Shown here in pieces: positions 1 through 11,454 of a DNA stretch of 11,454 nt. The stretch is from a virus (lineage: Duplodnaviria; Heunggongvirae; Uroviricota; Caudoviricetes): IMG/VR virus record IMGVR_UViG_2585427747_000005; one strand, 5' to 3'. Made by a program: the position numbers and the translations under genes. Each line of letters starts with the position of its first letter. Within the stretch, counting starts at the first letter, position 1. A model generated the notes under the pieces. It had not been told where the DNA came from and did no database searches. It was given only the letters and a program-made list of their open reading frames with translations.

Positions 1-1218
1 ATGAACAAACTGAGCGATACCTTGCTAAGGAAACTTCATGGTAAGCCAGCGGAGAAAAACACGTTTTATAGTGATGGCGGAAACCTGAGCGTGAAATATT
101 TAACATCAGGGAAATTGACCTGGTATTTCACATACAGGGCCGGAACGGGAAGGGAGACACGACCCGAACGCATTAAGCTGGGAAGTTATCCTGATCTGAG
201 CCTGAAAGCAGCCAGGGAAAAAGCCGCACAGTGTCGCACATGGCTGGCTGAGGGGAAAAATCCACGTCATGAGATGAATTACACCGTACAGGAAGCGTTA
301 AAGCCCGTAACGGTTGGCGATGCGCTCACCTACTGGCTTGAGTATTACGTAAAGGAAAACCGCGTGGATTATATCGCCCTGAAAAGGCGACTTAATAATC
401 ACGTAATACAGCAGATTGGTGCTATGCCGCTGGATAAATGCGAGCTACGGCACTGGCTGGCCTGTTTTGACCAGGTGGCAAAGCGAACGCCTGTTACTGC
501 CGGATTCGTGCTACAGGCGTGCAAACAGGCGCTTAAGTTCTGCCGTAGGCGGCGCTATGCAATCAGCAACGTTCTGGACGATCTGAACGTTGCGGACGTT
601 GGGAAAAAACCGGATATAAGCGAACGTGTCTTAAGTAACAAAGAACTTGGCGAATTATTGCAGGCACTGGACAAAAAAATATTCTCCCCTTACTACGTCG
701 CGTTAATCCGCCTCCTGATTGTCTTCGGAGCCAGAACGGTAGAACTGAGGTTATCGGAGATCGGGGAGTGGGATTTTACGGAAATGCTATGGACCGTTCC
801 GAAGGAGCACAGCAAAACGAAGGTCGCAATATTCCGGCCCATACCGGAAGCGATCCTGCCGTTCGTCACGCAGCTGGTGGAGCAGAACAGGCACACGGGC
901 TTATTGCTGGGGGAAGTGAAACAGGAGGCCAGCGTATCGCAGTATGGAAGATTAGCGCACTGGAGGCTTAATCACCCTCACTGGTCACTGCATGACATCC
1001 GGCGCACCTTTACAACCATGCTGAACGATTTAGGCGTTGATCCGCATGTCGTGGAGCAGCTTACAGGCCACCAGATGCCAGGAATGCAGCGAGTTTATAA
1101 TCATTCCCGTTATCTGGATGCGAAACGCAATGCGCTGGATATGTGGACGGAGCGGTTAGGGATACTGGCGGGAAAACATGAAAACGTAACCACGCTACCC
1201 GTAGCCAGAAGAAAATAA
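1..1218 (+). CDS. int: Tyrosine site-specific integrase, P4/CP4-57 family
   Basis: 405-aa ORF starting with ATG at 1; N-terminal arm-binding-type region (SDGGNLSVKY..WYFTYR); C-terminal catalytic motifs HDIRRT and VYNHSRY (HxxR and the catalytic Tyr). Confidence 0.9.
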   Translation: MNKLSDTLLRKLHGKPAEKNTFYSDGGNLSVKYLTSGKLTWYFTYRAGTGRETRPERIKLGSYPDLSLKAAREKAAQCRTWLAEGKNPRHEMNYTVQEALKPVTVGDALTYWLEYYVKENRVDYIALKRRLNNHVIQQIGAMPLDKCELRHWLACFDQVAKRTPVTAGFVLQACKQALKFCRRRRYAISNVLDDLNVADVGKKPDISERVLSNKELGELLQALDKKIFSPYYVALIRLLIVFGARTVELRLSEIGEWDFTEMLWTVPKEHSKTKVAIFRPIPEAILPFVTQLVEQNRHTGLLLGEVKQEASVSQYGRLAHWRLNHPHWSLHDIRRTFTTMLNDLGVDPHVVEQLTGHQMPGMQRVYNHSRYLDAKRNALDMWTERLGILAGKHENVTTLPVARRK

Positions 1219-1235
1219 TTTTTTTCGTGTTTTTT

Positions 1236-1251
1236 CAGTATGCGCATACTG
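1236..1251. promoter_or_regulatory. Perfect 16-bp palindrome CAGTATGCGCATACTG just downstream of the int stop
   Basis: Read directly; no flanking U-tract, so more likely a protein-binding site than an intrinsic terminator. Confidence 0.35.
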
Positions 1252-1273
1252 GATATGCGAACAGATACAACGT

Positions 1274-1313
1274 GCAACAATGAGCAACAATGTGGAACAA
1301 CTACGAACAAGAG
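1274..1313. repeat. Four tandem helically phased 10-bp repeats (GCAACAATGA, GCAACAATGT, GGAACAACTA, CGAACAAGAG)
   Basis: Exact 10-bp periodicity at 1274, 1284, 1294 and 1304, in the int-alpA intergenic region. Confidence 0.45.
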
Positions 1314-1583
1314 GCGAAAAAGCGTACGGATTTATAAGTAGCTGATTTTTAATGTGTTACTGGTTTTTTGTACACTAGCGAATCACTCTTTAAAGAGCGA
1401 GAAAAAAGGCATGGAACAATATTTTATGCCTTTGTATTAACATGAATTTAAAAGATTTTATTCTTACTGTTTCATTTTCTGTAAATCATACATCCTCAGT
1501 ATTTGCCATTCATCACTCTAGCGGGAACAATACGACACAATAAGACACCTGATGACTCTTTAAGAAACGAAAGGGGGGCAATA

Positions 1584-1772
1584 GTGTTAAGCACTGATCG
1601 GTTTATACGTGAAAAAGAATGCGAAAAACTAACCGGCCTTAGCCGTACGTGTCGCTACCGCCTGGAAAAGGCCGGACAATTCCCATCACGTCGTAAACTT
1701 GGCGGTCGTTCCGTTGGATGGTCTTTATCCGAGGTTCTGGCCTGGAAGGATAGCTGCAAGGCAGTTCATTAA
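1584..1772 (+). CDS. alpA: AlpA-family (Xis-like) transcriptional regulator / recombination directionality factor
   Basis: GTG start at 1584 preceded by a strong Shine-Dalgarno (AAAGGGGGG, 1571-1578); HTH segment LTGLSRTCRYRLEKAGQFP and KLGGRSVGW typical of the AlpA family. The track ORF starts at a TTG at 1503, which is unlikely. Confidence 0.8.
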   Translation: MLSTDRFIREKECEKLTGLSRTCRYRLEKAGQFPSRRKLGGRSVGWSLSEVLAWKDSCKAVH

Positions 1773-1918
1773 TCACGCTGGCGGCACGCAGCCGCCACAC
1801 ATCAATCATCTGAACACAGAGCTATAACCATGAAGATTGAATATACGCCAGAACGTGGGCGGGGATTCGTTCGCCCTGGTGAAACTGAAAAACAACAAAA
1901 TTGGGGTTTTTCAGGTAT

Positions 1919-1948
1919 AAAAAAAGCGGCCCCGAAATGGAGCCGCCT
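1919..1948 (-). terminator. Rho-independent terminator for the leftward small-gene operon
   Basis: On the minus strand GGCGGCUCC-AUUUC-GGGGCCGC forms an 8-bp stem with a 5-nt loop, followed by a 7-U run. Confidence 0.6.
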
Positions 1949-2041
1949 TTCTGAACAGATAACCCGCTGCGCCGTTTGTGTGTGTGATCCCAAACATAAG
2001 CACGGGGATGATAGCCGTTATCAGGCTGGTGGGCAATGCAA

Positions 2042-2230
2042 TCAGTCTGGTTCAGTTCGTTGCCATACCTGCAATGAGCGCTTTTCCCTGTACTCTTTAA
2101 GGAATTGCTCAAGGGCAAAAGCACATGGCGCGAATCTTTCTGATTCATGCTCTATCTTTCTGCGCCGTCTTTTCCGTGCCGGTGATAATGTTTTGGTCAA
2201 TTCTTTATCGGTCATTGTGTTGTCCTGCAT
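2042..2230 (-). CDS. Small basic hypothetical protein (RKRRRRK tract)
   Basis: 62-aa ORF. The likelier start is the internal ATG at 2215, which has an AGGA Shine-Dalgarno; it lies 42 nt downstream of the RHH-like gene and upstream of the minus-strand terminator. Confidence 0.45.
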   Translation of the reverse strand: MQDNTMTDKELTKTLSPARKRRRRKIEHESERFAPCAFALEQFLKEYREKRSLQVWQRTEPD

Positions 2231-2272
2231 AGCAATGCGCCGTAATACCTTACACCACGGCGCTGATGGTGA

Positions 2273-2452
2273 TTACTCTGGTTCTTTGGCCTTGCGCCGC
2301 TGGCGATATTCAACTTCTCGTTTTAATGCCGCAGTAACAAATTGCCCCGTACTTTCGCCAGGCATTTTTACCGCCTCAACATTGTTCATAACTTCATGCG
2401 GAACCCTTGCCGCAACGGTTTGTGATTTTGCGTTTACCGCTTTTGTCGCCAT
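2273..2452 (-). CDS. Ribbon-helix-helix (Arc/CopG-like) DNA-binding protein, candidate repressor
   Basis: 59-aa ORF (MATKAVNAKSQTVAARVPHEVMNNVEAVKMPGESTGQFVTAALKREVEYRQRRKAKEPE), below the track cutoff; GAGGGG Shine-Dalgarno 8 nt before the ATG at 2452; strand-helix-helix pattern; adjacent to the operator triplet. Confidence 0.55.
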   Translation of the reverse strand: MATKAVNAKSQTVAARVPHEVMNNVEAVKMPGESTGQFVTAALKREVEYRQRRKAKEPE

Positions 2453-2502
2453 GTGGTGTACCCCTCATAAAAAACAAATGCAGTATGCAGGAAAAAAAAT
2501 AA

Positions 2503-2554
2503 GTGTTCAACACTTGACGTGTTTAACACCTGGGTTTAAATTGGTGTTCAACAC
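2503..2554. promoter_or_regulatory. Three copies of the 11-bp palindromic operator GTGTT-N-AACAC overlapping divergent promoter elements
   Basis: GTGTTCAACAC at 2503-2513, GTGTTTAACAC at 2519-2529, GTGTTCAACAC at 2544-2554; a TTGACG -35-like hexamer at 2514-2519 sits between the first two. Confidence 0.55.
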
Positions 2555-2651
2555 CTTGTTGGCGCAAGGTGCAGAAACGACGAAACCCGGCAGTGCGCTA
2601 ACACTAACCGGGCTTCTAACCACCAACGATAGCGAAAGTATCGAGGTAGCT

Positions 2652-2855
2652 ATGAGAAATCATACCACACACCCGCAAGGGCGGGACTCGCACGACCTGA
2701 ATAAATACATCTGGCGTTTTATCGCCCTGAGCACGGCACAACCGCGCGTGATTACCATCGAGGCCACCAGCGAACAGGAAGCGCGTCAGCAATCTCCGGC
2801 TGGCTGCGTGATGGTATTCGCTGCCCGTATTCGCCAGGGGTCACATCATGCGTAA
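2652..2855 (+). CDS. Icd-like / P4 Kil-region-like small protein
   Basis: 67 aa, GAGGT Shine-Dalgarno; motif YIWRF...ATSEQEARQQ...VFAARIRQG matches my recollection of the host cell division inhibitor Icd-like family. Confidence 0.55.
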   Translation: MRNHTTHPQGRDSHDLNKYIWRFIALSTAQPRVITIEATSEQEARQQSPAGCVMVFAARIRQGSHHA

Positions 2856-3141
2856 AAACCGCTTGCAAAAAATTATCACGGGGCTGTATGCTTCCCCCGT
2901 CGCCCACATGGCGACCGGGTTTGACAGCCTGAATACATCTGGCGGACAGCCGCCCACATCCGATAAGCGGTTTTTTTGTGTCCGTAAACCTACCCATACC
3001 CGCATTATGGCGGGGCGTAACGGGGGAGCCTTTGTGCTCGCTGGTTTCCAGATGACCAGTCTGTCAACCCTGTTACGTCTCGCCACCATGTTTGACAGCG
3101 TAGTAGCGAGACTCCTTAAAATTCATCTGGGAGCCTTTCAC

Positions 3142-3309
3142 ATGGCTGTATCCGCACGCCCTTATTTTGTCTGGCGCTTTATGCAGTGCCTGACAGACAG
3201 CATTGCAATATTCACCGTTACCGCTGCCACTGAGCGCGAAGCACGTGCACAGCTGCCGCACGCACATCTGATTTTTGTCGCCCGTATTCGTCAGGGGGTA
3301 GGCTTATGA
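3142..3309 (+). CDS. Icd-like paralog (second copy)
   Basis: 55 aa from the ATG at 3142 (GGAG Shine-Dalgarno); YFVWRF...ATEREARAQ...FVARIRQG parallels the first copy. A longer in-frame ORF starts at 2848 but its N-terminal 98 aa look non-protein-like. Confidence 0.5.
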   Translation: MAVSARPYFVWRFMQCLTDSIAIFTVTAATEREARAQLPHAHLIFVARIRQGVGL

Positions 3310-3539
3310 GTCAGGAAATCACACTACAACAGGCAGCAGAACGCGCCCACCAAATCGAAGTTATTTGCGCACTGGCAGAGGATTACCCTGGCATGATGAC
3401 CGACAGCGAATCAGGGGCAATCATCGGCTTACTTAAACGCCTTAGCGGTGAGGTCTGCGTATTCCTGAGCGATGAACAGGAAAGAAGAACGCTTATTTCT
3501 AACGAAAAAAAATGCGGAGGGGTACACCATGTGCAATAA
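3306..3539 (+). CDS. Hypothetical small protein
   Basis: 77-aa ORF; ATG overlaps the upstream stop (ATGA), suggesting translational coupling; no recognisable motif. Confidence 0.45.
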   Translation: MSQEITLQQAAERAHQIEVICALAEDYPGMMTDSESGAIIGLLKRLSGEVCVFLSDEQERRTLISNEKKCGGVHHVQ

Positions 3540-3750
3540 CATCCGTCCGGACGCAGCAGCCGCCGCGCTCACTACGCTGATGCACGCGCTTATCGATATT
3601 GAATGCACTGCAGAGCTTGCGCAGGGAGAAGAACAGAAAGACCGGACACAGTTCGCCCTGGAATGTATCCGATACATCGCAACGCGGTCGCTGAATGAAG
3701 CTAAAAATATTCTTGTTGCTGATTGTGAAAATGGGGGGGGTTATGCGTGA
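3529..3750 (+). CDS. Hypothetical small protein
   Basis: 73 aa from the ATG at 3529 with a GGAGGGG Shine-Dalgarno (the track ORF begins at 3472); no recognisable motif. Confidence 0.4.
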   Translation: MCNNIRPDAAAAALTTLMHALIDIECTAELAQGEEQKDRTQFALECIRYIATRSLNEAKNILVADCENGGGYA

Positions 3751-3976
3751 TGATCGTTTTAATTCCCTGAAACAGGAATTTTCCGGCGTTCCTGATGATG
3801 CGGCTGATGCGCTTTCGTCAATGCCAGAACTTATTAGAGCGGCTTTTTTCTTACTTTCCACGAGAGAATATAAATCAACGGGGCTTGATGTACTGAATAT
3901 CGCCGCCGATTATGCGGAATATGTGGCAGAGGCGCGTTATAGAAGAAAATTTCCTGAGGATGTAAGCCATGCGTGA
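3743..3976 (+). CDS. Hypothetical small acidic protein
   Basis: 77 aa from the ATG at 3743 after a G-rich Shine-Dalgarno; start embedded in ATGCGTGA overlapping the upstream stop. Confidence 0.45.
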   Translation: MRDDRFNSLKQEFSGVPDDAADALSSMPELIRAAFFLLSTREYKSTGLDVLNIAADYAEYVAEARYRRKFPEDVSHA

Positions 3977-4202
3977 TATTTACCACGAAACAATAGACCG
4001 CGCATTTCTTGCACTTTCTCACAGTGAAAACATGCTGGAAATATTGCGCATATGGCTTGAAACACTTGGCGACAATGAACGCGACAAACAAAAATCAAGA
4101 ATTGCCACGGCATTAATAACGCTTCTTGAGCCTGTAATAATGGAACTGCAAGAAATAGATCTATTGCACGACAGATATAAAGAACAGCACACCGGAGAAT
4201 AA
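3969..4202 (+). CDS. Hypothetical small protein
   Basis: 77-aa ORF; ATGCGTGA start/stop overlap with the upstream gene; helical-looking sequence. Confidence 0.5.
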   Translation: MRDIYHETIDRAFLALSHSENMLEILRIWLETLGDNERDKQKSRIATALITLLEPVIMELQEIDLLHDRYKEQHTGE

Positions 4203-4207
4203 AAATA

Positions 4208-4507
4208 ATGAAACTTAAATATTCTGGCTTAACTGCCAGTGGCAACACTCACCCTAAATTTACGCGCGGCGATATTTACCGCGACCAGTACGGCGGCACG
4301 GTAATGATTAAGGGCGTGGAAGAACGGCGCGTAACCTACCGCCGTGAAGGTTACGAATATGATTGCGTGATGCCTGTTTATCAGTTCCGGCGTGATTTTT
4401 CTCTGGTACAGACCGCGCCGCATAACGTGTCCACCAGCAACGCCAGGGCACGGGCAAACATCCAGAAGCTGAAAACCATGATTAACGGATTCAGGGGTAA
4501 AAAATGA
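4208..4507 (+). CDS. Hypothetical protein
   Basis: 99-aa ORF, GGAGA Shine-Dalgarno; stop overlaps the start of the replication gene (ATGA). Confidence 0.5.
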   Translation: MKLKYSGLTASGNTHPKFTRGDIYRDQYGGTVMIKGVEERRVTYRREGYEYDCVMPVYQFRRDFSLVQTAPHNVSTSNARARANIQKLKTMINGFRGKK

Positions 4508-6258
4508 AACTGGCACCGAACGTAAAACAGCAGTCACGCGGCATAAAACACAAAGAAACAGAAGTCATTATTTTTGCGGGTAGTGATGCCTGGTCACACG
4601 CAAAACAATGGCAGGAACATGACGCGCGTATGGCCGGAGATAATGAGCCTCCTGTGTGGCTTGGGGAGCAGCAGTTATCCGAACTGGATAAGCTGCAAAT
4701 TGTGCCGGAAGGCAGAAAATCCGTGCGCATATTCAGGGCCGGATATCTTGCGCCAGTAATGATAAAGGCGATTGGTCAGAAGCTGGCGGCGGCAGGCGTA
4801 CAGGATGCAAATTTTTACCCTGATGGTATGCACGGTCAGAAGGTGGAGAACTGGCGCGAATATCTGGCCCGTGAGCGCCAGAATCTTTCTGATGGTCTGG
4901 TCATTGAGCTTCCGGTAAAGCAAAAGGCGCAACTTTCGCAGATGGCGGACAGTGAGCGCGCGCAGCTGCTTGCCGATCGCTTTGATGGCGTTTGCGTACA
5001 TCCTGAAAGTGAAATCGTTCACGTATGGCGCGGCGGGGGATGGTGTCCGGTCAGCACAATGGAACTTAGCCGCGAAATGGTGGCGATCTATTCAGAGCAC
5101 AGGGCCACTTTCAGCAAGCGCGTAATCAATAACGCCGTGGAAGCGTTAAAAGTTATTGCCGAACCAATGGGCGAGCCGTCCGGCGATTTGTTGCCGTTCG
5201 CCAATGGTGCGCTTGACCTGAAAACGGGGGAATTTTCCCCGCACACGCCGGAGAACTGGATCACCACGCACAACGGCATTGAGTACACGCCACCAGCACC
5301 AGGGGAGAACATCCGCGATAACGCGCCAAACTTTCATAAATGGCTTGAGCACGCAGCCGGAAAAGACCCGCGCAAGATGATGCGTATATGTGCCGCGCTG
5401 TACATGATTATGGCGAACCGGTACGACTGGCAGATGTTTATTGAGGCCACCGGAGACGGCGGGAGCGGTAAAAGTACATTCACACACATAGCCAGCCTTC
5501 TGGCAGGGAAACAGAACACGGTAAGCGCTGAAATGACATCGCTTGATGATGCTGGTGGACGTGCGCAGGTTGTCGGGAGTCGTCTTATCGTCCTGGCTGA
5601 CCAGCCGAAATATACAGGCGAAGGAACGGGCATCAAGAAAATCACGGGCGGTGACCCCGTGGAAATTAACCCGAAATACGAAAAGCGTTTCACGGCGGTA
5701 ATCAGGGCGGTGGTGCTGGCGACCAACAATAACCCGATGATATTCACCGAACGGGCCGGAGGTGTGGCACGTCGTCGCGTGATTTTCCGTTTCGACAATA
5801 TCGTCAGTGAGGCCGAAAAAGACAGGGAGCTACCGGAAAAGATCGCGGCTGAAATCCCTGTCATTATCCGCCGATTGCTGGCGAACTTTACCGACCCTGA
5901 GAAGGCACGGGCTTTACTACTGGAACAGCGTGACGGTGATGAAGCTCTGGCAATAAAGCAACAGACGGATCCGGTTATTGAGTTTTGCCAGTTCCTGAAT
6001 TTTCTGGAGGAAGCGCGCGGCCTGATGATGGGGGGCGGTGGCGATTCAGTGAAGTACACGACCAGGAACAGCCTTTACCGCGTCTATCTGGCGTTTATGG
6101 CATACGCAGGCAGGAGCAAACCGCTAAACGTAAATGACTTTGGCAAGGCTATGAAGCCAGCCGCGAAAGTTTACGGACATGAATATATTACGCGGAAAGT
6201 TAAGGGAGTAACGCAGACTAACGCAATAACAACAGACGATTGCGACGCGTTTTTATAA
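4504..6258 (+). CDS. Replication initiator: P4-alpha-family primase C-terminal domain / SF3-type NTPase
   Basis: 584 aa; Walker A GDGGSGKST, Walker B-like RLIVLADQ, D5_N-like segment LPFANGALDLKTGEF; no obvious TOPRIM primase motif seen in the N-terminal third. Confidence 0.85.
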   Translation: MKLAPNVKQQSRGIKHKETEVIIFAGSDAWSHAKQWQEHDARMAGDNEPPVWLGEQQLSELDKLQIVPEGRKSVRIFRAGYLAPVMIKAIGQKLAAAGVQDANFYPDGMHGQKVENWREYLARERQNLSDGLVIELPVKQKAQLSQMADSERAQLLADRFDGVCVHPESEIVHVWRGGGWCPVSTMELSREMVAIYSEHRATFSKRVINNAVEALKVIAEPMGEPSGDLLPFANGALDLKTGEFSPHTPENWITTHNGIEYTPPAPGENIRDNAPNFHKWLEHAAGKDPRKMMRICAALYMIMANRYDWQMFIEATGDGGSGKSTFTHIASLLAGKQNTVSAEMTSLDDAGGRAQVVGSRLIVLADQPKYTGEGTGIKKITGGDPVEINPKYEKRFTAVIRAVVLATNNNPMIFTERAGGVARRRVIFRFDNIVSEAEKDRELPEKIAAEIPVIIRRLLANFTDPEKARALLLEQRDGDEALAIKQQTDPVIEFCQFLNFLEEARGLMMGGGGDSVKYTTRNSLYRVYLAFMAYAGRSKPLNVNDFGKAMKPAAKVYGHEYITRKVKGVTQTNAITTDDCDAFL

Positions 6259-6270
6259 TTTTTTGCAATG

Positions 6271-6498
6271 GCTGTCTACCCTGTCTACCTGAGTAAAGAA
6301 AAATACATTTAATTCAGTATATTAACTTAGGTAGGCAGCCTTTTTTCACTGTCTACCTACTATCTACCCTCTCTACCTGATTTTACCTGAATCAGACAGG
6401 GAGGTAGATACGGGGTAGATAGTGGATAAAAGCACTCTACCCCGCTGAAAGCCGCGCCATTACTGGCATGAGAGCCAGTAAGGTAGATAAGGTAGACA
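6271..6498. repeat. Origin of replication: iteron array (TGTCTACC and variants, both orientations)
   Basis: TGTCTACC at 6273, 6282 and 6350; ATCTACC at 6362; CTCTACC at 6371 and 6434; inverted GGTAGATA/GGTAGACA at 6403, 6414, 6482 and 6491; immediately downstream of the replication gene. Confidence 0.7.
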
Positions 6499-6546
6499 AG
6501 GGGAGGCACAACTCAAAACTTTTTAAACGAGGGGGTAAAAATAAAA

Positions 6547-6804
6547 ATGCGCACATCAGGAAAACTTAATAATCAGAAGAAGCAGCATAACCGCGCCATT
6601 GACCTTACAGAGCACTGGCTGAGAGTGGCGATAAAAATCATCGACCGCAACACGGGGGAAGGATACGCGAAAGCACATCCCGACCTGATAAGCGCATTCA
6701 TGACCACGGCGGCGGCAAACTTTGCCACGCTGACAGAACGGGAGATTGCCGAAGCGGAACAGGTAACAACCATCAACGTTAAAACCGGAGAGGTGGAATC
6801 ATGA
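6547..6804 (+). CDS. Hypothetical protein
   Basis: 85-aa ORF with a GAGGGGG Shine-Dalgarno; stop overlaps the SSB start (ATGA). Confidence 0.5.
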   Translation: MRTSGKLNNQKKQHNRAIDLTEHWLRVAIKIIDRNTGEGYAKAHPDLISAFMTTAAANFATLTEREIAEAEQVTTINVKTGEVES

Positions 6805-7223
6805 CAGCACAGATAGCAGCTTACGGGCGGCTGGTGGACGACCCGCAGGTAAAACAGACCAGCAAGGGCACACCAATGACGCTGGCACGTATGGCGGTCC
6901 CCCTTCCGTGCAGCCAGGCAGATGACGGAACGGCGACGATGTGGTTATCCGTCCTGGCATTTGGCAGACAGGCCGAAGCACTGGAAAGGCACCGCAAGGG
7001 TGAACTCCTGAGCGTGGCGGGTAACATGCAGATCAGCCAGTGGACTGGGCAGAACGGAGAAACGCGGCAGGGCTGGCAGGTTATCGCAGACAGTGTAATC
7101 AGTGCGCGAACGGCGCGACTGGGCGGCAAAAAAGGTCAACAGGGCCAGGCTACTGACGCGCTGAACAGGGCAAAACAACAGGCGGGGAATGATGATCCGT
7201 ACGGGGATAACATACCGTTTTAA
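6801..7223 (+). CDS. ssb: Single-stranded DNA-binding protein (SSB-like)
   Basis: 140 aa; OB-fold-like conserved positions (W..V.AFG..AE, RKG, W....G..R) and an acidic C-terminal tip DDPYGDNIPF resembling the E. coli SSB D-IPF tail. Confidence 0.75.
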   Translation: MTAQIAAYGRLVDDPQVKQTSKGTPMTLARMAVPLPCSQADDGTATMWLSVLAFGRQAEALERHRKGELLSVAGNMQISQWTGQNGETRQGWQVIADSVISARTARLGGKKGQQGQATDALNRAKQQAGNDDPYGDNIPF

Positions 7224-7239
7224 GCGACGAGTGACAGAA

Positions 7240-7261
7240 GCCGGAGCAATCCGGCTTTTTT
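7240..7261 (+). terminator. Rho-independent terminator after ssb
   Basis: GCCGGA-gcaa-TCCGGC stem-loop followed by 6 T. Confidence 0.7.
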
Positions 7262-7638: not shown

Positions 7639-7845
7639 ATGGCTGAAGAGAAAAAAGGCGGTGTTTCGGTGTACATAAGCCCCGAAATCGTGGAGGTGCT
7701 CAAGCAGCGCCACAAAAAAAACTATGAGGCTGGCGTGGCGGCTGGACTGGATCCGCTGATGACGCCGGAGCCGTCGATAGGTTCACTTGTACGCTCTTAT
7801 TTACTTGCGGCGCTTGGGATGCATAAAAATTATGGGGGTGAATAA
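7639..7845 (+). CDS. Hypothetical small protein upstream of the capsid gene
   Basis: 68-aa ORF; stop overlaps the capsid start (TAATG); possible strand-helix start (VSVYISPEIVEVLKQ). Confidence 0.5.
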   Translation: MAEEKKGGVSVYISPEIVEVLKQRHKKNYEAGVAAGLDPLMTPEPSIGSLVRSYLLAALGMHKNYGGE

Positions 7846-8900
7846 TGGCAGGCAAAGCAACGGCACTTAACACTCACCAGCTTTTTGCGTACCTGAATCG
7901 CGGGGATATTGCGGAATTTAAATTTAGTCCGCTGTTTACCACGCTGTTTTTCCCGAAAGTAGCGACATTCAACACCCAAAACATCATGCTGGATAACCTG
8001 GACACCGAAGAAGTCACTATGTCAGCGTTTTGCTCGCCTATGGTTGGTAGCCAGGTACAGCGCGATAAAGGGTACGAAACCAGCACGATTAAACCTGGCT
8101 ACATGAAGCCAAAGCACGAAATCGATCCAACAAAAACCATCATGCGCATGGCTGGAGAAGATCCGGCACAGCTTAACGACCCAACCTATCGCCGTATGCG
8201 CCTGATTACTGGCAACATGCGCCGCCAGGTAAACGCTATTAAAGCGCGTGTTGAATGGCTGGCGGTAAATGCGGTAACGACCGGAAAAAACATCATTGAG
8301 GGCGAAGGCATAGAACGCTATGAAATCGACTGGAAGATGCCGGAAAACAACATCATAGAGCAGGCCAAAGGCCGTAAATGGTCCGAGCAGGACAAAGAAA
8401 CCCACGATCCAATCTATGATATCGAGCTTTATGCGGATCAGGGCAATTGCCCCGCAAACGTCATGATTATGGGCGCTGAGGTATGGCGCACGTTACGCAG
8501 CTTTAAAAAATTCCGCGAACTGTACGATCTTTCCCGTGGTTCAGAATCCGCCGCAGAACTGGCCTGTAAAAACCTGGGCGAAGTGGTGAGCTTTAAAGGC
8601 TATCTGGGCGATATTGCCCTTATCGTCTATTCCGGCAAATACGCCGACAGCGACGGCACCGAAAAACATTTCCTTGAGCCTGATTTGCTGGTCTTGGGCA
8701 ACACCAACAATAAAGGGCTGGTTGCTTATGGTGCGATTATGGATCAGGAAGCGGTAAGAACGGGCGCAACGCAAAACATGTACTACCCGAAAAACTGGAT
8801 TGAGGACGGCGATCCGGCGATTGAGTACGTGCAGACGCACAGCGCACCGCAGCCGGTGCCGGCAGACATTCGCAAATTTGTTACCGTCAAAATTGGTTAA
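7845..8900 (+). CDS. Major capsid protein, lambda gpE family
   Basis: 351 aa; FKFSPLF..LFF, PGYMKPKHE, EDPAQLNDPTYRRMR, YPKNWIEDGDPAIEY..SAP match remembered lambda gpE segments (FKFDPLF..LFF, PGYVKPKHE, EDPQNLADPAYRRRR, YPKNWVTTGDPAREF..SAP). Confidence 0.9.
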   Translation: MAGKATALNTHQLFAYLNRGDIAEFKFSPLFTTLFFPKVATFNTQNIMLDNLDTEEVTMSAFCSPMVGSQVQRDKGYETSTIKPGYMKPKHEIDPTKTIMRMAGEDPAQLNDPTYRRMRLITGNMRRQVNAIKARVEWLAVNAVTTGKNIIEGEGIERYEIDWKMPENNIIEQAKGRKWSEQDKETHDPIYDIELYADQGNCPANVMIMGAEVWRTLRSFKKFRELYDLSRGSESAAELACKNLGEVVSFKGYLGDIALIVYSGKYADSDGTEKHFLEPDLLVLGNTNNKGLVAYGAIMDQEAVRTGATQNMYYPKNWIEDGDPAIEYVQTHSAPQPVPADIRKFVTVKIG

Positions 8901-8911
8901 CGGGGGATTCT

Positions 8912-9247
8912 ATGAACACTCCATACATTGAGTTATTTGCAGGCAGTCAGCAGGTATCCACGACGCTGGTACATTTTGCCGCTGATGCTGGCGTCATTCA
9001 GGAATTTACCCCGCTGATGCTGGCGGACAATGGCGAGTTTAAGCCGTGGGATGGTCAGGCGTCCGGAAAGGCTGTTTATCTGACTTCGTACCCCGTGGAC
9101 ACGTCAAAGCAGAAATCAGCACAGTGCTACAAGACGGGGATCTTTAATATCGCCGCCGTGAACTGGCCCGAGAGCGTCGACACCGATGCGAAAAAATGCG
9201 CCGCCTTTGCGGGTTCTGGCGTATCCGTTCAGCCGCTGGCCCGATAA
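8912..9247 (+). CDS. Head decoration protein, lambda gpD family
   Basis: 111 aa; TPLMLADNG..WDGQASGKAV...YKTGIFN..WPE...KKCAAFAGSGVSV parallels lambda gpD TPLMLDTSS..WDGTTDGAAV...YKSGTFR..WPE...KKRTAFAGTAISIV. Confidence 0.85.
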   Translation: MNTPYIELFAGSQQVSTTLVHFAADAGVIQEFTPLMLADNGEFKPWDGQASGKAVYLTSYPVDTSKQKSAQCYKTGIFNIAAVNWPESVDTDAKKCAAFAGSGVSVQPLAR

Positions 9248-9259
9248 GCAGGGGGAACG

Positions 9260-9673
9260 ATGGCAACGAATGAAAGCATCATGACGCTACCGCTGGCGAG
9301 TAAATTTAAAGCCGAAGCGCGGGCAATGGCTGACAGAGGTTTATCAACCTACGAGGCCGTATATCAACTCAACAAACTGGAAGAGCAGGACAAGCCGCGC
9401 GCTGATGCGATTATGGCGCTTCATGAGCATAACGACTATCAGCCGCTGTTACGTGCAATGGCAAACGTGCCTTGTATCGATGTTGGTACGGCTAAAAGCA
9501 TCCTTAGCATGACCATAGAGCAGGAACGCCAGAAGGTTGCGCCGGAGCTTACCGCAGCCTTTGAAAACTTTATGGACATGCACAGCCCGCAAGCCGTTTC
9601 AGCTGGCATGGCATACGACGGCAGAAACCCGGGCGATGATGGCGACATCGAGCGCATACTGAAAACCATCTGA
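9260..9673 (+). CDS. Hypothetical protein, last gene of the head-module operon
   Basis: 137-aa ORF with an AGGGGG Shine-Dalgarno; acidic and helical-looking; no confident homolog recognised. Confidence 0.55.
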   Translation: MATNESIMTLPLASKFKAEARAMADRGLSTYEAVYQLNKLEEQDKPRADAIMALHEHNDYQPLLRAMANVPCIDVGTAKSILSMTIEQERQKVAPELTAAFENFMDMHSPQAVSAGMAYDGRNPGDDGDIERILKTI

Positions 9674-9679
9674 GACAAG

Positions 9680-9702
9680 GCCGGAGAAATCCGGCTTTTT
9701 TT
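9680..9702 (+). terminator. Rho-independent terminator
   Basis: GCCGGA-gaaa-TCCGGC followed by 7 T; near-identical to the hairpin at 7240-7255. Confidence 0.7.
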
Positions 9703-9770
9703 ACGGGTCCTTTCCGGCATATGGACCCGTTACGGGGCGGCGACCTCGCGGGTTTTCGCTATTTATGACG
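9703..9770 (+). other. cos: Lambda-type cos site (cosQ-like segment plus cosN GGGCGGCGACCT at 9735-9746)
   Basis: ACGGGTCCTTTCCGG...CCGTTACG|GGGCGGCGACCT|CGCGGGTTTTCGCTATTTATGA matches remembered lambda cos flanks, diverging only in the cosQ-cosN spacer. Confidence 0.8.
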
Positions 9771-9835
9771 TTTTTCCGTGAAGGTGACACCACCACCACT
9801 TGATTAATATTTAACCATGCAGTTAAGGTAACATT

Positions 9836-10276
9836 ATGATTGATAAAGCTTGTTTTGTAAGTCAGCAGGAAATAGCTGAACATTTCAAGGTTAACAGAAC
9901 CACTATTCGCGCATGGACCAAACAGGGGATGCCGTATCTTAATGCGGATCGCGGAAAGTCTGGCGGTTATCACATCGGGCATACATTGCTTTGGTCTTCA
10001 GGTAAAAGCCGTCTTGAGGCCATCAGATATCACGTAGAAACCAGTGCGCTGGAAAAAATTATGTTTGCCAGGCTGCTTTCATCTGAGCGTGACGAGTACT
10101 CCAGTGAAGAAACAGAACATAGATTTGATGAAGGTTTACAGATTTACGGCTACTCACCGGAAGAAGTGAGCAAAGCGCGAAATAAAATGGCCGGCTTTCT
10201 GGCTGGGTGGCGTCATGCCGTAAGCGTTCGCCGTGCCAGCATGGAACAATCAGTCGTTACAGAACAGCAAAGTTAA
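9836..10276 (+). CDS. Terminase small subunit homolog (lambda Nu1-like wHTH); Rpp-like packaging-redirection candidate
   Basis: 146 aa; VSQQEIAEHFKVNRTTIRAWTKQGMPYL parallels lambda Nu1 KKQLADIFGASIRTIQNWQEQGMPVL; no large terminase gene in the window. Confidence 0.8.
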   Translation: MIDKACFVSQQEIAEHFKVNRTTIRAWTKQGMPYLNADRGKSGGYHIGHTLLWSSGKSRLEAIRYHVETSALEKIMFARLLSSERDEYSSEETEHRFDEGLQIYGYSPEEVSKARNKMAGFLAGWRHAVSVRRASMEQSVVTEQQS

Positions 10277-10306
10277 AAATCACTTTCTGTTACGCCATCA
10301 AATACG

Positions 10307-10460
10307 CAATACAACAACCACGTATTTTTTTAAAACTATTTGATTCAATTAGCATTTTTTTATTTTTAGCATCAAAAAAACACTATCAGGTTGTTGTATT
10401 GCTCTTTATTTTTACTTAGTTATCAAATGGATATGACAAACAATTAAACAACAACCTCCC
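10307..10460. repeat. cosB-like array: three ACAACAACC/GGTTGTTGT sites in an AT-rich segment
   Basis: CAATACAACAACC (10307-10319) and its exact inverted copy GGTTGTTGTATTG (10391-10403); third ACAACAACC at 10449-10457; lies between the terS-like stop and the inverted cosN. Confidence 0.45.
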
Positions 10461-10469
10461 TCTAAAAAA

Positions 10470-10537
10470 GCTCATAAATAGCGAAAAACCGCGAGGTCGC
10501 CGCCCCGTAACGGGCCATAATTCCAGGAAGGACCCGA
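10470..10537 (-). other. cos: Second cos copy in inverted orientation (cosN GGGCGGCGACCT on the minus strand, 10494-10505)
   Basis: Reverse complement reads CGGGTCCTTCCTGG...CCGTTACG|GGGCGGCGACCT|CGCGGTTTTTCGCTATTTATGAG, an imperfect inverted repeat of 9703-9770. Confidence 0.7.
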
Positions 10538-10569: not shown

Positions 10570-10851
10570 ATGACAGAAGCCGAACTACTGGGATTAATCC
10601 GCCGCGTTACCGGAATCAGCCAGCAGCATGACGAACAGGCCACGCAGCCGGACAGCGTGACCGCCGAAAATTACGCGCGTGTGGTTGCTGAGGTGATGCG
10701 CCGTGATGGTATCCAGCTTAATGATGTGGATATGCGCAACATACGGATCCGCGTTCTTGAAATGCTGGCCTACAATCGCCGCGTGGCACTGTATCGGGAA
10801 ACGGAGAAAATTACGTACCACTGGAAGAAGCCGGAGCGGTTACGGCGTTAA
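10570..10851 (+). CDS. Hypothetical protein
   Basis: 93-aa ORF, G-rich Shine-Dalgarno; no recognisable motif. Confidence 0.5.
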   Translation: MTEAELLGLIRRVTGISQQHDEQATQPDSVTAENYARVVAEVMRRDGIQLNDVDMRNIRIRVLEMLAYNRRVALYRETEKITYHWKKPERLRR

Positions 10852-10867
10852 CGAGTAGCGACATACC

Positions 10868-10902
10868 GTGACGGAGAGTGACAACCAGTGACACGCCGTG
10901 AC
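10868..10902. repeat. Four GTGAC motifs at exact 10-bp spacing
   Basis: GTGAC at 10868, 10878, 10888 and 10898 (cGTGACg, aGTGACa, aGTGACa, cGTGACa). Confidence 0.5.
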
Positions 10903-11221
10903 AAAAGACGGTTTAACCGTTAATTAAAAATTGACGGGATTTTATGCTTTCCGGACGACGTGACCAACGTCATTTTTTAGCGAAAAGTTCTGATTAAGGT
11001 CATTGTCTGAATGGTCATAATGACCACTCCTACAAAACAGGTAAAGCCCACCAGCCTGATTAACAGTTAACCGGAAAAAAAATCCGGTAGCCCCGTTATG
11101 GGGATCCCCATATCAACATTAACGCCCCTCATGAATTAGCGCGCTTCCCCCTGGAAAGATGACCCGCCTGTATATTTCTTGTGTCTATTTGTTCCACGTT
11201 GTTTCATACAGTGCACCGAAC

Positions 11222-11243
11222 GGTGTAGTCACTGGTGTAGTCA
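11222..11243. repeat. Tandem 10-bp direct repeat GGTGTAGTCA x2 near the right junction
   Basis: GGTGTAGTCA at 11222-11231 and 11234-11243; adjacent palindromes CACCG-aa-CGGTG (11213-11224) and TGGGGATCCCCA (11099-11110). Confidence 0.4.
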
Positions 11244-11307
11244 TTTTGCGATTTATGGCACTTTTTGTAGTGCAAATCATTTAATTAAATCAATGCGTTA
11301 AGTGAAA

Positions 11308-11454
11308 TTAGTTATATATAACAGCAATAAATAATGCGAGAATAAACGGCACGATGATCTCGGCGGCAAAACGGATACCGCAGAGAATAATGACCAGCAT
11401 TCCCAACATAATGACGATTTTTAGGCCATTGAGCGTGATGATCGGCTTTGCCAT
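11308..11454 (-). pseudogene. tqsA: 5' fragment of an AI-2E family transporter gene (tqsA/ydgG-like), interrupted after about 46 codons
   Basis: Minus-strand translation [45 protein letters not shown] matches my recollection of the E. coli TqsA N-terminus, then diverges (IYN, stop at 11308-11310). Confidence 0.55.

Follow-up and report, generated by a model that had tools for sequence, protein, structure and literature searches.

A probable packaging-hijack module with an RppA allele and two cos sites in opposite orientation in a PICI of Escherichia coli

Gene content and placement of the island

The DNA analysed here, called the window throughout, is a stretch of 11,454 nucleotides from an IMG/VR virus record (IMGVR_UViG_2585427747_000005; Caudoviricetes). 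It opens with an integrase gene, AlpA, icd-like genes, DUF4222, a D5/DUF5906 primase, SSB, and a 68-aa ORF; the remainder consists of a gpE-like capsid gene, a gpD-like decoration gene, a 137-aa ORF, a cos site (cos1), rpp, an inverted cos site (cos2), and a 93-aa ORF. The genes outside the stretch from cos1 to cos2 include the following:

1–1218, + strand: tyrosine integrase, PICI backbone (1–7223)
1503–1772, + strand: AlpA, PICI backbone, in which the icd-like genes are also present
4504–6258, + strand: D5/DUF5906 primase, PICI backbone
6801–7223, + strand: SSB, PICI backbone
7845–8900, + strand: gpE-like major capsid protein (Pfam and PHROGs; 43% identity to lambda E)
8912–9247, + strand: gpD-like decoration protein (Pfam and PHROGs; 36% identity to lambda D)
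9260–9673, + strand: 137-aa ORF with Nu3/protease C-terminal similarity (Pfam and PHROGs)
10570–10851, + strand: 93-aa conserved ORF, phrog_1561, distal to cos2; the same gene is found in EcCICFT073 and in the E. coli 042 island

The capsid and decoration genes correspond to c1499 and c1500 of EcCICFT073 (PMC6092414). According to Pfam and to the PGAP annotation of an identical island, portal, protease, tail, and connector genes are absent from the island, and both the window and the island lack terS and terL; an earlier note on this DNA, made from the letters alone, had already remarked on the missing large terminase. A cf-PICI was considered and rejected, since the capsid, decoration, and scaffold-like genes are present but portal, protease, terminase, and connector genes are not.

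Islands that are 100% identical to the window occur in at least 10 complete E. coli genomes, where tqsA is split. The window island is collinear with EcCICFT073, at 85–95% nucleotide identity, and also with the island of E. coli 042, which occupies the same tqsA site and has its Rpp entered in Table S1 of PMC6739421. Judged by its sequence, the window belongs to the EcCICFT073 family of PICIs, with E. coli tqsA as its insertion site. It shares with EcCICFT073 the PICI backbone and the order capsid-like gene, decoration-like gene, 137-aa ORF, cos1, rpp, inverted cos2, and 93-aa ORF, whereas it differs in sitting in tqsA (EcCICFT073 lies next to roxA/phoQ), in having an integrase that is only 85% identical at the nucleotide level, and in being without a PerC gene.

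Anatomy of cos1

The first cos site lies between the 137-aa ORF and rpp, and its parts, with bp counted from the first base of the cohesive end, are as follows:

9677–9702, + strand: Rho-independent terminator-like hairpin (GCCGGA-GAAA-TCCGGC followed by T7) that ends the capsid-gene operon; its T-run enters cosQ
9700–9715, + strand: cosQ, TTTACGGGTCCTTTCC, the same as lambda cosQ, aligned to lambda and to EcCICFT073 cos1
9735–9746, + strand: cosN, 12-nt cohesive end, GGGCGGCGACCT, an exact lambda match; bp 1 is position 9735
9747–9768 (bp 13–34), + strand: cosN-proximal spacer, CGCGGGTTTTCGCTATTTATGA, conserved and common to lambdoid phages
9782–9807, + strand: PICI-specific cosB, of which bp 48–65 are the R3-PICI proposed by Murialdo and Feiss (PMC9026076)

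The definition of cosQ was taken from Fig. S1 of PMC6739421, and in phage DE3 the sequence that is the same as GGGCGGCGACCT carries the annotation 'cos site'. When a 49-nt pattern running from cosQ to cosN was searched across the whole window, it was found at two sites, 9703–9751 (+ strand, 0 mismatches) and 10489–10537 (− strand, 1 mismatch), and it was matched in none of 200 dinucleotide-preserving shuffles. The cos match in the window is real and far above chance. A cosQ together with a 12-nt cosN at the lambda spacing, which is what marks a lambda-type cos, is found at cos1 and cos2 alike.

Position-by-position alignment of cos1 to lambda gave 12/12 identical positions in the cohesive end, 25/28 at bp 13–40, and 32/50 over the 50 nt that precede the cohesive end, cosQ included. 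The earlier note had claimed that the cos flanks match lambda through cosQ and cosN, and these figures, together with the identical cosQ, bear this out. Farther into the site, only 8 of the 30 positions at bp 41–70 and 15 of the 60 at bp 71–130 are identical. Since identity to lambda is at background beyond the spacer, the lambda cosB (R3, I1, R2, R1) is absent from cos1, and none of its TerS-binding repeats R3, R2, and R1 could be found there in the alignment to lambda. Matches to the cos1 stretch in a phage database cover only query positions ~39–127 and end at about bp 45–50. Of 5426 complete E. coli genomes, 4189 have the cosQ–cosN core, as part of lambdoid prophages.

Compared with EcCICFT073 cos1 from −50 to +130, the window is identical at 179 of 180 positions, and the lone difference falls in cosQ, at a base where the window agrees with lambda. 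The window thus carries the exact cosB of the published swap experiments, in which cosB swaps and a chimeric phi80 mapped cosB as the RppA-dependent determinant (PMC6739421).

Within this cosB, the block ACACCACCACCACTTGATTAA (9787–9807, bp 53–73) is invariant in the cos1 of all five islands aligned, namely those of the window, CFT073, 042, Ch1, and ETEC1730. The ETEC1730 island (L013) keeps the block despite a wholly different cosN core; its cosN core is unrelated at both of its cos sites. We regard the block as a putative Rpp site, which fits the Rpp-specific R3 proposed at bp 48–65 (PMC9026076). The cos of phage N15 is similar in having a compact cosB with one element ~50–65 bp from the nick and a next gene at ~bp 90–100 (PMC9026076); the N15 element, however, is bound by the phage's own TerS, whereas that of cos1 is proposed to be read by a hybrid of Rpp and TerS.

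The hairpin that precedes cosQ has a predicted RNA fold of −16.1 kcal/mol (z = −4.2 versus shuffles). A scan for consensus terminators and promoters gave counts no higher than those of shuffles and missed this hairpin, because its stem absorbs part of the T-run.

The Rpp protein

The gene immediately downstream of cos1 is the following:

9836–10276, + strand: rpp, RppA allele, 146 aa, with an N-terminal winged HTH (~7–57) and a C-terminal helical dimerisation region

A ribosome binding site, AAGGT, is found 7–8 nt upstream of the ORF, and rpp follows cos1 at a distance of 55 bp. The ATG is bp 102 from the cos1 nick, the same nick-to-ATG spacing that Murialdo and Feiss give for rpp of PICI-C (PMC9026076). 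When compared with RppA of EcCICFT073 (c1503; AAN79972.1 / WP_000565609.1; strain CFT073; Fillol-Salom et al. 2018, 2019), translated from the CFT073 genome, the window ORF shares 141 of 144 aligned residues; no difference falls within residues 1–109, and those that exist are D110E and a C-terminal end that reads SVVTEQQS and not SADTEQ. We identify the window ORF as an RppA allele. The packaging redirection of the Rpp type that the earlier note had foreseen is upheld both by this match and by the near-identity of the two cos1 sites.

In a phmmer search against all PDB sequences, the best match was RppC (6HLK, and 6HN7 with lambda TerS 1–98; E = 2.4e-31), with 55 of 126 residues identical over residues 2–125 and the same layout of winged HTH and helical dimerisation region. 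The matches after RppC were marginal and were to the Nu1 DNA-binding domain (6HN7_B, E = 0.084; 1J9I, E = 0.14). RppC is only ~44% identical to the window Rpp, is 153 aa long, and has a basic tail at its C-terminus. RppB-type clusters are closer, at 84% identity. Islands of the RppB type, such as that of ETEC1730, are like the window in having a 146-aa Rpp, a C-terminal SVVTEQ, and a GGTTGTTGT-type cosB at cos2, but their Rpp begins MNNKDCF... and is ~84% identical.

The proposed DNA-contact residues R21, T22, R25, K29, R39, and K41 are invariant in 15 Rpp homologues. An AlphaFold2 model of Rpp, built on a 15-sequence alignment, was of low confidence (pLDDT 52.7, pTM 0.40); the model being too poor for a fold search, it is the sequence homology to RppC, whose structure is solved, that carries the argument for the fold. 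In addition to its full-length homology to RppA, RppB, and RppC, the ORF adjoins the 3' side of a PICI cos that retains the cosQ and cosN of the helper beside a non-phage cosB, has a winged HTH that is Nu1-like in sequence, and resides in a PICI, all of which are traits of the Rpp family. By analogy with the RppA experiments (PMC6739421), the window Rpp would bind the helper TerS, block phage packaging, and support cos1-dependent transfer of the island.

One might instead take the ORF for an ordinary HTH transcription factor or an excisionase-like regulator of the island, its position beside cos being incidental. There are indeed weak, sub-threshold matches to HTH_28, HTH_17, and MerR_1 and to PHROG excisionase and HTH families. 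However, all of these matches fall below curated cut-offs and cover only ~20–30 residues, whereas RppA and RppC are homologous to the ORF specifically and over its full length, and the cos–rpp spacing and the conserved cosB block are kept across islands. A generic HTH regulator is highly improbable, and we rejected it.

Relation of Rpp to the small terminase

The earlier note had described the ORF as an island-encoded small terminase with a Nu1-like winged-HTH N-terminus, and only the latter part of this description stands. BLASTP against lambda Nu1 gave 30% identity between Rpp residues 8–71 and Nu1 residues 3–55 (E = 3e-6), and PHROG 57, 'terminase small subunit', matches Rpp residues 7–47 (E = 3.4e-8). 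Lambda gpNu1 (TerS; PF07471; 1J9I) is thus like Rpp in its N-terminal winged HTH, with 30% identity over ~55 residues, and like rpp its gene lies just 3' of cosN.

The two proteins part company beyond this domain. Nothing was aligned by BLASTP past Rpp residue 71, and there was no match to the oligomerisation or TerL-binding regions of Nu1. The Pfam model Phage_Nu1 (PF07471) scored 14.6 bits, below its gathering cut-off of 30, and only profile positions 3–36 of 164 were matched (33/164). Rpp was also put into a multiple alignment with five TerS proteins of the lambdoid type, in which its C-terminal two thirds remained unaligned; when cos and ORF are set against the lambdoid cos and TerS families, as the earlier note had proposed, cosQ and cosN match lambda and the homology to TerS extends over the DNA-binding domain only. 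Rpp is ~35 aa shorter than Nu1, is without its TerL-binding C-terminus, and recognises a different cosB. There is no terL beside rpp, which is followed by an intergenic stretch of 190 bp and then by the inverted cos2.

We take the resemblance to Nu1 to be real but confined to the winged HTH (residues ~7–71). Rpp is not a small terminase, and the label should be dropped because the protein scores below the curated threshold of the Nu1 family, has no counterpart of its C-terminal domains, and has no terL adjacent to its gene. Published experiments show that Rpp binds TerS and is no substitute for it, helper TerS still being essential (PMC6739421, PMC6092414, PMC9026076).

It might still be argued that the ORF is a genuine, truncated small terminase of the Nu1 family left by a decayed lambdoid prophage, the cos being derived from the same prophage. 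The N-terminal similarity to Nu1 and PHROG 57 would agree with this, as would the position of a lambda-type cosQ and cosN directly ahead of the ORF, which is also the phage arrangement. However, such a remnant is hard to reconcile with the Phage_Nu1 score and coverage, with the lack of similarity to the oligomerisation and TerL-binding regions, with the absence of terL, portal, and tail genes from a context (int-alpA-pri-ssb) that is that of a PICI, or with the 98% identity of the ORF to a protein that acts by binding TerS (PMC6739421). We consider the chance of a true TerS remnant very slight and have rejected this reading, which is refuted in practice.

A second, inverted cos site

A second cos lies, inverted, 759 bp downstream of cos1; it falls outside the coordinates treated in the earlier note and goes unmentioned there. 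A repeat search gave a 72-nt inverted repeat, 9704–9775 versus 10465–10536, with 86% complementarity. The parts of this second site, cos2, are as follows:

10494–10505, − strand: cos2 cosN cohesive end, inverted relative to cos1
10523–10537, − strand: cos2 cosQ-like sequence, TCGGGTCCTTCCTGG, identical to the EcCICFT073 cos2 flank
10311–10456, − strand: cos2 cosB with three R-like elements, GGTTGTTGT, in the lambda R3/R2/R1 arrangement
10448–10456 (bp 50–58), forward: R-like element 1, lambda counterpart R3 (53–64)
10389–10397 (bp 109–117), inverted: R-like element 2, lambda counterpart R2 (113–124)
10311–10319 (bp 187–195), forward: R-like element 3, lambda counterpart R1 (151–162)

Elements 2 and 3 are the inverted repeat 'I2' of the repeat search, and the repeats of this cosB are of a different sequence type from those of lambda. 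The site is the counterpart of the published EcCICFT073 cos2, and from its anatomy we identify it as a phage cos that is complete and belongs to a non-lambda specificity class. The published papers, in which comparison was made only with lambda, phi80, and phage 4, report no phage cosB identifiable at either PICI cos, and cos2 is undiscussed in a 2022 review. The complete, three-R-element anatomy of cos2 may be unreported, and it is the only part of the finding with some novelty.

The stretch comprising cos2 and its cosB has relatives in 299 E. coli genomes, four of which were inspected (L008, L014, L009, and L013). In the lambdoid prophages L008 and L014 the related stretch, 77–80% identical, lies directly upstream of terS; in L009 and L013, which are other PICIs, it lies downstream of rpp. 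Aligned over the span between cosQ and the start of terS, cos2 and L008 are identical at 180 of 224 positions overall and at 145 of 188 in the cosB part. A phage collection searched with the cos2 region returned the cosQ–cosN core only, with no cosB match, whereas relatives of the cosB were found among prophages in E. coli genomes and only there.

EcCICFT073 and the 042 island carry a different cos2 cosB, in which the repeats, at bp 51, 108, and 138, are of the ATGTCCGGTT type. This type of cos2 is identical at 148 of 155 positions to the prophage cos–cosB of strain 1070/13, in which terS starts at bp 196, and the ATGTCCGGTT-type cos2–cosB has relatives in 1185 genomes. A match in O157:H7 (H138) was set aside as uninformative, since an IS66 element disrupts the region. 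The swap between the window module and that of CFT073 and 042 has its left breakpoint in the last rpp codons and its right one ~30 bp from the cos2 nick; the last Rpp residues of the window and the 190 bp from rpp to cos2, which hold the cos2 cosB, are accordingly another module than in EcCICFT073. In the two classes of prophage, the TerS proteins have a C-terminal part in common, and at the N-terminus each class has a DNA-binding domain related neither to that of the other class nor to Nu1; this fits the different R elements of the two classes. TerS proteins that go with a GGTTGTTGT-type cosB are WP_001426432.1 and WP_089649264.1.

We tentatively propose, while giving it rather less than an even chance, that cos2 is an exchangeable copy of a specific lambdoid packaging site, cut just before the terS start, and not a degenerate duplicate. 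Different islands would carry different TerS-specificity classes (GGTTGTTGT in the window and the RppB-type islands, ATGTCCGGTT in CFT073 and 042), and each island would have two entries, cos1 being Rpp-dependent and open to TerS of the lambda, phi80, and 21 types, and cos2 being Rpp-independent and serving another prophage lineage with an unrelated TerS DNA-binding domain. The homology of cos2 to prophage cos sites is a matter of alignment; the Rpp-independent packaging route for a second helper class is what we infer. With lambda and phi80, cos2 is dispensable or even slightly harmful in published data (PMC6092414). If true, this proposal would explain why islands keep a second, inverted cos and would make helper range predictable from sequence.

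It might even be that cos2 is the main packaging site when the natural helper is present, being read directly by an unmodified TerS from one specific lambdoid lineage, and that Rpp and cos1 act chiefly in interference and provide a reserve route when the helper is lambda, phi80, or of the 21 type. Such a role would suit a site with cosQ, cosN, and three R-like elements at lambda-like positions whose identity to the L008 and L014 cos regions runs through to the terS start; the EcCICFT073 cos2 is likewise 95–96% identical to another prophage cos–cosB, and both EcCICFT073 cos sites are functional, transfer being abolished when both are deleted (PMC6092414). However, EcCICFT073 needs cos1, and not cos2, for transfer by lambda and phi80, its transfer is raised by deletion of cos2, and RppA lowers the transfer of a cos2 plasmid. 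Furthermore, a genome with an identical island (H102) shows no second GGTTGTTGT-type cosB in a search that gave one place per record, and with this same scope no resident lambdoid prophage was located in the genomes that have the identical island. We consider packaging mainly from cos2 unlikely.

Proposed mechanism and helper range

It is very probable that the region is the packaging-hijack module of an EcCICFT073-family PICI, in which a lambda-type cosQ and cosN with a PICI-specific cosB are followed by rpp. The module is already known, RppA and cos1 having been characterised genetically and structurally, and the window holds another natural allele of it; one allele and one insertion site (tqsA) are added to a system already worked out. 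Our observations concern the sequence identity to this characterised system, the anatomy of the sites, and the genomic context, and for protein–protein interaction, DNA binding, and transfer we draw by homology on experiments in which the protein was 98% identical and cos1 identical.

After induction of a lambdoid helper, the island would excise and replicate into concatemers. RppA dimers would bind the Nu1-type TerS of the helper, the winged HTH of RppA pairing with the DNA-binding domain of TerS to form a hybrid DNA-binding unit. This hybrid would no longer recognise the R sites of the phage cosB, so that phage packaging would be blocked, and would instead recognise the island cosB at the invariant ACACCACCACCAC block (bp 53–73). 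The C-terminus of TerS would still recruit the helper TerL; TerS is presumably essential because it alone recruits TerL. TerL would then nick the island cosN, since this is identical to the phage cosN, and packaging would proceed rightwards from cos1 into proheads made by the helper. EcCICFT073 DNA is packaged into full-size capsids (mechanism experiments: PMC6092414, PMC6739421). For direct binding of Rpp to DNA, the published RppA evidence is genetic.

The hijack resembles that of the SaPIs (SaPI TerS with Ppi; SaPIbov5 cos with Ccm), in which the terminase of the helper is likewise turned to satellite DNA and the helper suffers interference; two cos sites are also found in SaPIbov4 (PMC6092414). 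The SaPI proteins are, however, unrelated to Rpp, and in pac SaPIs two proteins do the job of the single Rpp (PMC6739421).

The documented helpers are lambda, phi80, and CFT073 prophage 4, which has a 21-type TerS, and by analogy the helpers that fit the window island would be lambda, phi80, and 21-type phages. The earlier note had predicted a helper like lambda or HK97; the lambda half holds, lambda being a documented helper, and the HK97 half does not, since HK97 has an unrelated TerS and is for that reason insensitive to RppA (PMC6739421). The cos2–cosB module, which differs from that of CFT073, could alter the competition between the two cos sites.

Consequences for annotation

The practical value of these results lies in annotation. 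The family of Rpp homologues is small, comprising 17 clusters at 90% identity from Escherichia, Klebsiella, Phytobacter, and Salmonella, all of them named 'hypothetical protein'. PGAP gives rpp the same name; neither Pfam nor NCBIfam holds a model for Rpp, and NCBIfam is without models for the neighbouring ORFs as well. As a consequence, ~2% of complete E. coli genomes contain Rpp genes and PICI cos sites that bear no label, the unit of cos1 and rpp (at least 80% coverage) being present in 97 of 5426.

The second cos site of the island

Downstream of rpp, the island carries a second cos site in inverted orientation:

Window 10290-10537, minus strand: cos2, consisting of cosQ, cosN, and three GGTTGTTGT R-like elements

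The three GGTTGTTGT elements are placed much as R3, R2, and R1 are in lambda, and cos2 is homologous to the stretch that immediately precedes terS in the lambdoid prophages L008 and L014. Judged by its sequence, cos2 is a complete phage-type cos. According to published papers, no phage cosB has been found at the cos sites of PICIs (PMC6092414, PMC6739421).

Between window positions 10255 and 10463, a module has been swapped relative to EcCICFT073 (L003, 26077-26267) and the Escherichia coli 042 island (L007); it comprises the last codons of Rpp and the entire cosB of cos2, and is flanked on either side by DNA that is 94-99% identical. The terminal residues of Rpp in the window, SVVTEQQS, are RppB-like, and the RppB-type genes of the islands Ch1 (L009) and ETEC1730 (L013) are followed by the same cosB type as that of the window cos2.

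Two classes of prophage each possess a cosB that matches one cos2 type, and their TerS genes were compared:

L008 6484-6990: TerS gene of one class
L011 3677-4186: TerS gene of the other class

The C-terminal two thirds of the two proteins are nearly identical, whereas the N-terminal DNA-binding domains are unrelated, a pattern that looks like a natural domain swap running parallel to that of cosB.

Paired change of the two cos sites

The cos sites were also compared in related islands, where cos1 and cos2 vary in concert:

L009 (Ch1) 6474-6496 and 7235-7257: the two cos sites
L013 (ETEC1730) about 915-1000 and 1690-1760: the two cos sites

In Ch1, one G-to-T change in the cohesive end (GGGCGTCGACCT) is shared by cos1 and cos2, and in ETEC1730 an unrelated cosN core occupies cos1 and cos2 alike, with the ACACCACCACCACTTGATTAA block retained. 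This co-variation suggests a match between cosN and the TerL of the helper, and homogenisation of cosN between the inverted copies. In cos1 of the 042 island (L007 10796-10835), the spacer between cosQ and cosN is of the cos2 type (CCTTCCTGGAATTATGGCCCG), a sign that one inverted copy may have been converted by the other there.

Capsid-like genes upstream of cos1

Two capsid-like genes lie at 7845-9247: one for a gpE-like major capsid protein that shares 43% identity with lambda E, the other for a gpD-like decoration protein that shares 36% with its lambda equivalent. They are the counterparts of c1499 and c1500 of EcCICFT073, for which the literature gives no phenotype. The island encodes neither a portal nor a protease gene. 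One further ORF follows:

Window 9260-9673: 137-aa ORF (phrog_1999), between the decoration-protein gene and cos1

A further match of this ORF, to PHROG 53 ("head maturation protease"), falls near the C-terminus of that family (positions 495-567 of 583, E=5.5e-8), in a region equivalent to the nested Nu3 scaffold in lambda. It aligns weakly with residues 126-191 of lambda Nu3 (E=0.05), and may be a scaffold-like protein; PGAP labels one homologue "head-tail connector".

Island ends and the tqsA junction

The island splits tqsA, the AI-2 transporter gene, with the right junction at approximately 11296-11310:

Window 10868-10902: four GTGAC motifs (CGTGACGGAGAGTGACAACCAGTGACACGCCGTGAC), period exactly 10 bp
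Window 11221-11243 and L001 1543-1565: 23-bp direct repeat CGGTGTAGTCACTGGTGTAGTCA (GGTGTAGTCA twice), near both island ends
Window 11308-11454, minus strand: N-terminal 48 codons of tqsA, right end of the window
L001 509-1414: remainder of tqsA, left of the integrase

The GTGAC motifs are probably arm-type sites for the integrase or an excisionase; the 042 island shares them, together with the tqsA site and integrase type, whereas EcCICFT073 lacks them and has three TAACCCGTTGATATTTTCG-like repeats in the same place. The CGGTGTAGTCACTGGTGTAGTCA repeat, to which a sequence at the right end of EcCICFT073 is similar, may flank att or serve as a binding site for a recombinase.
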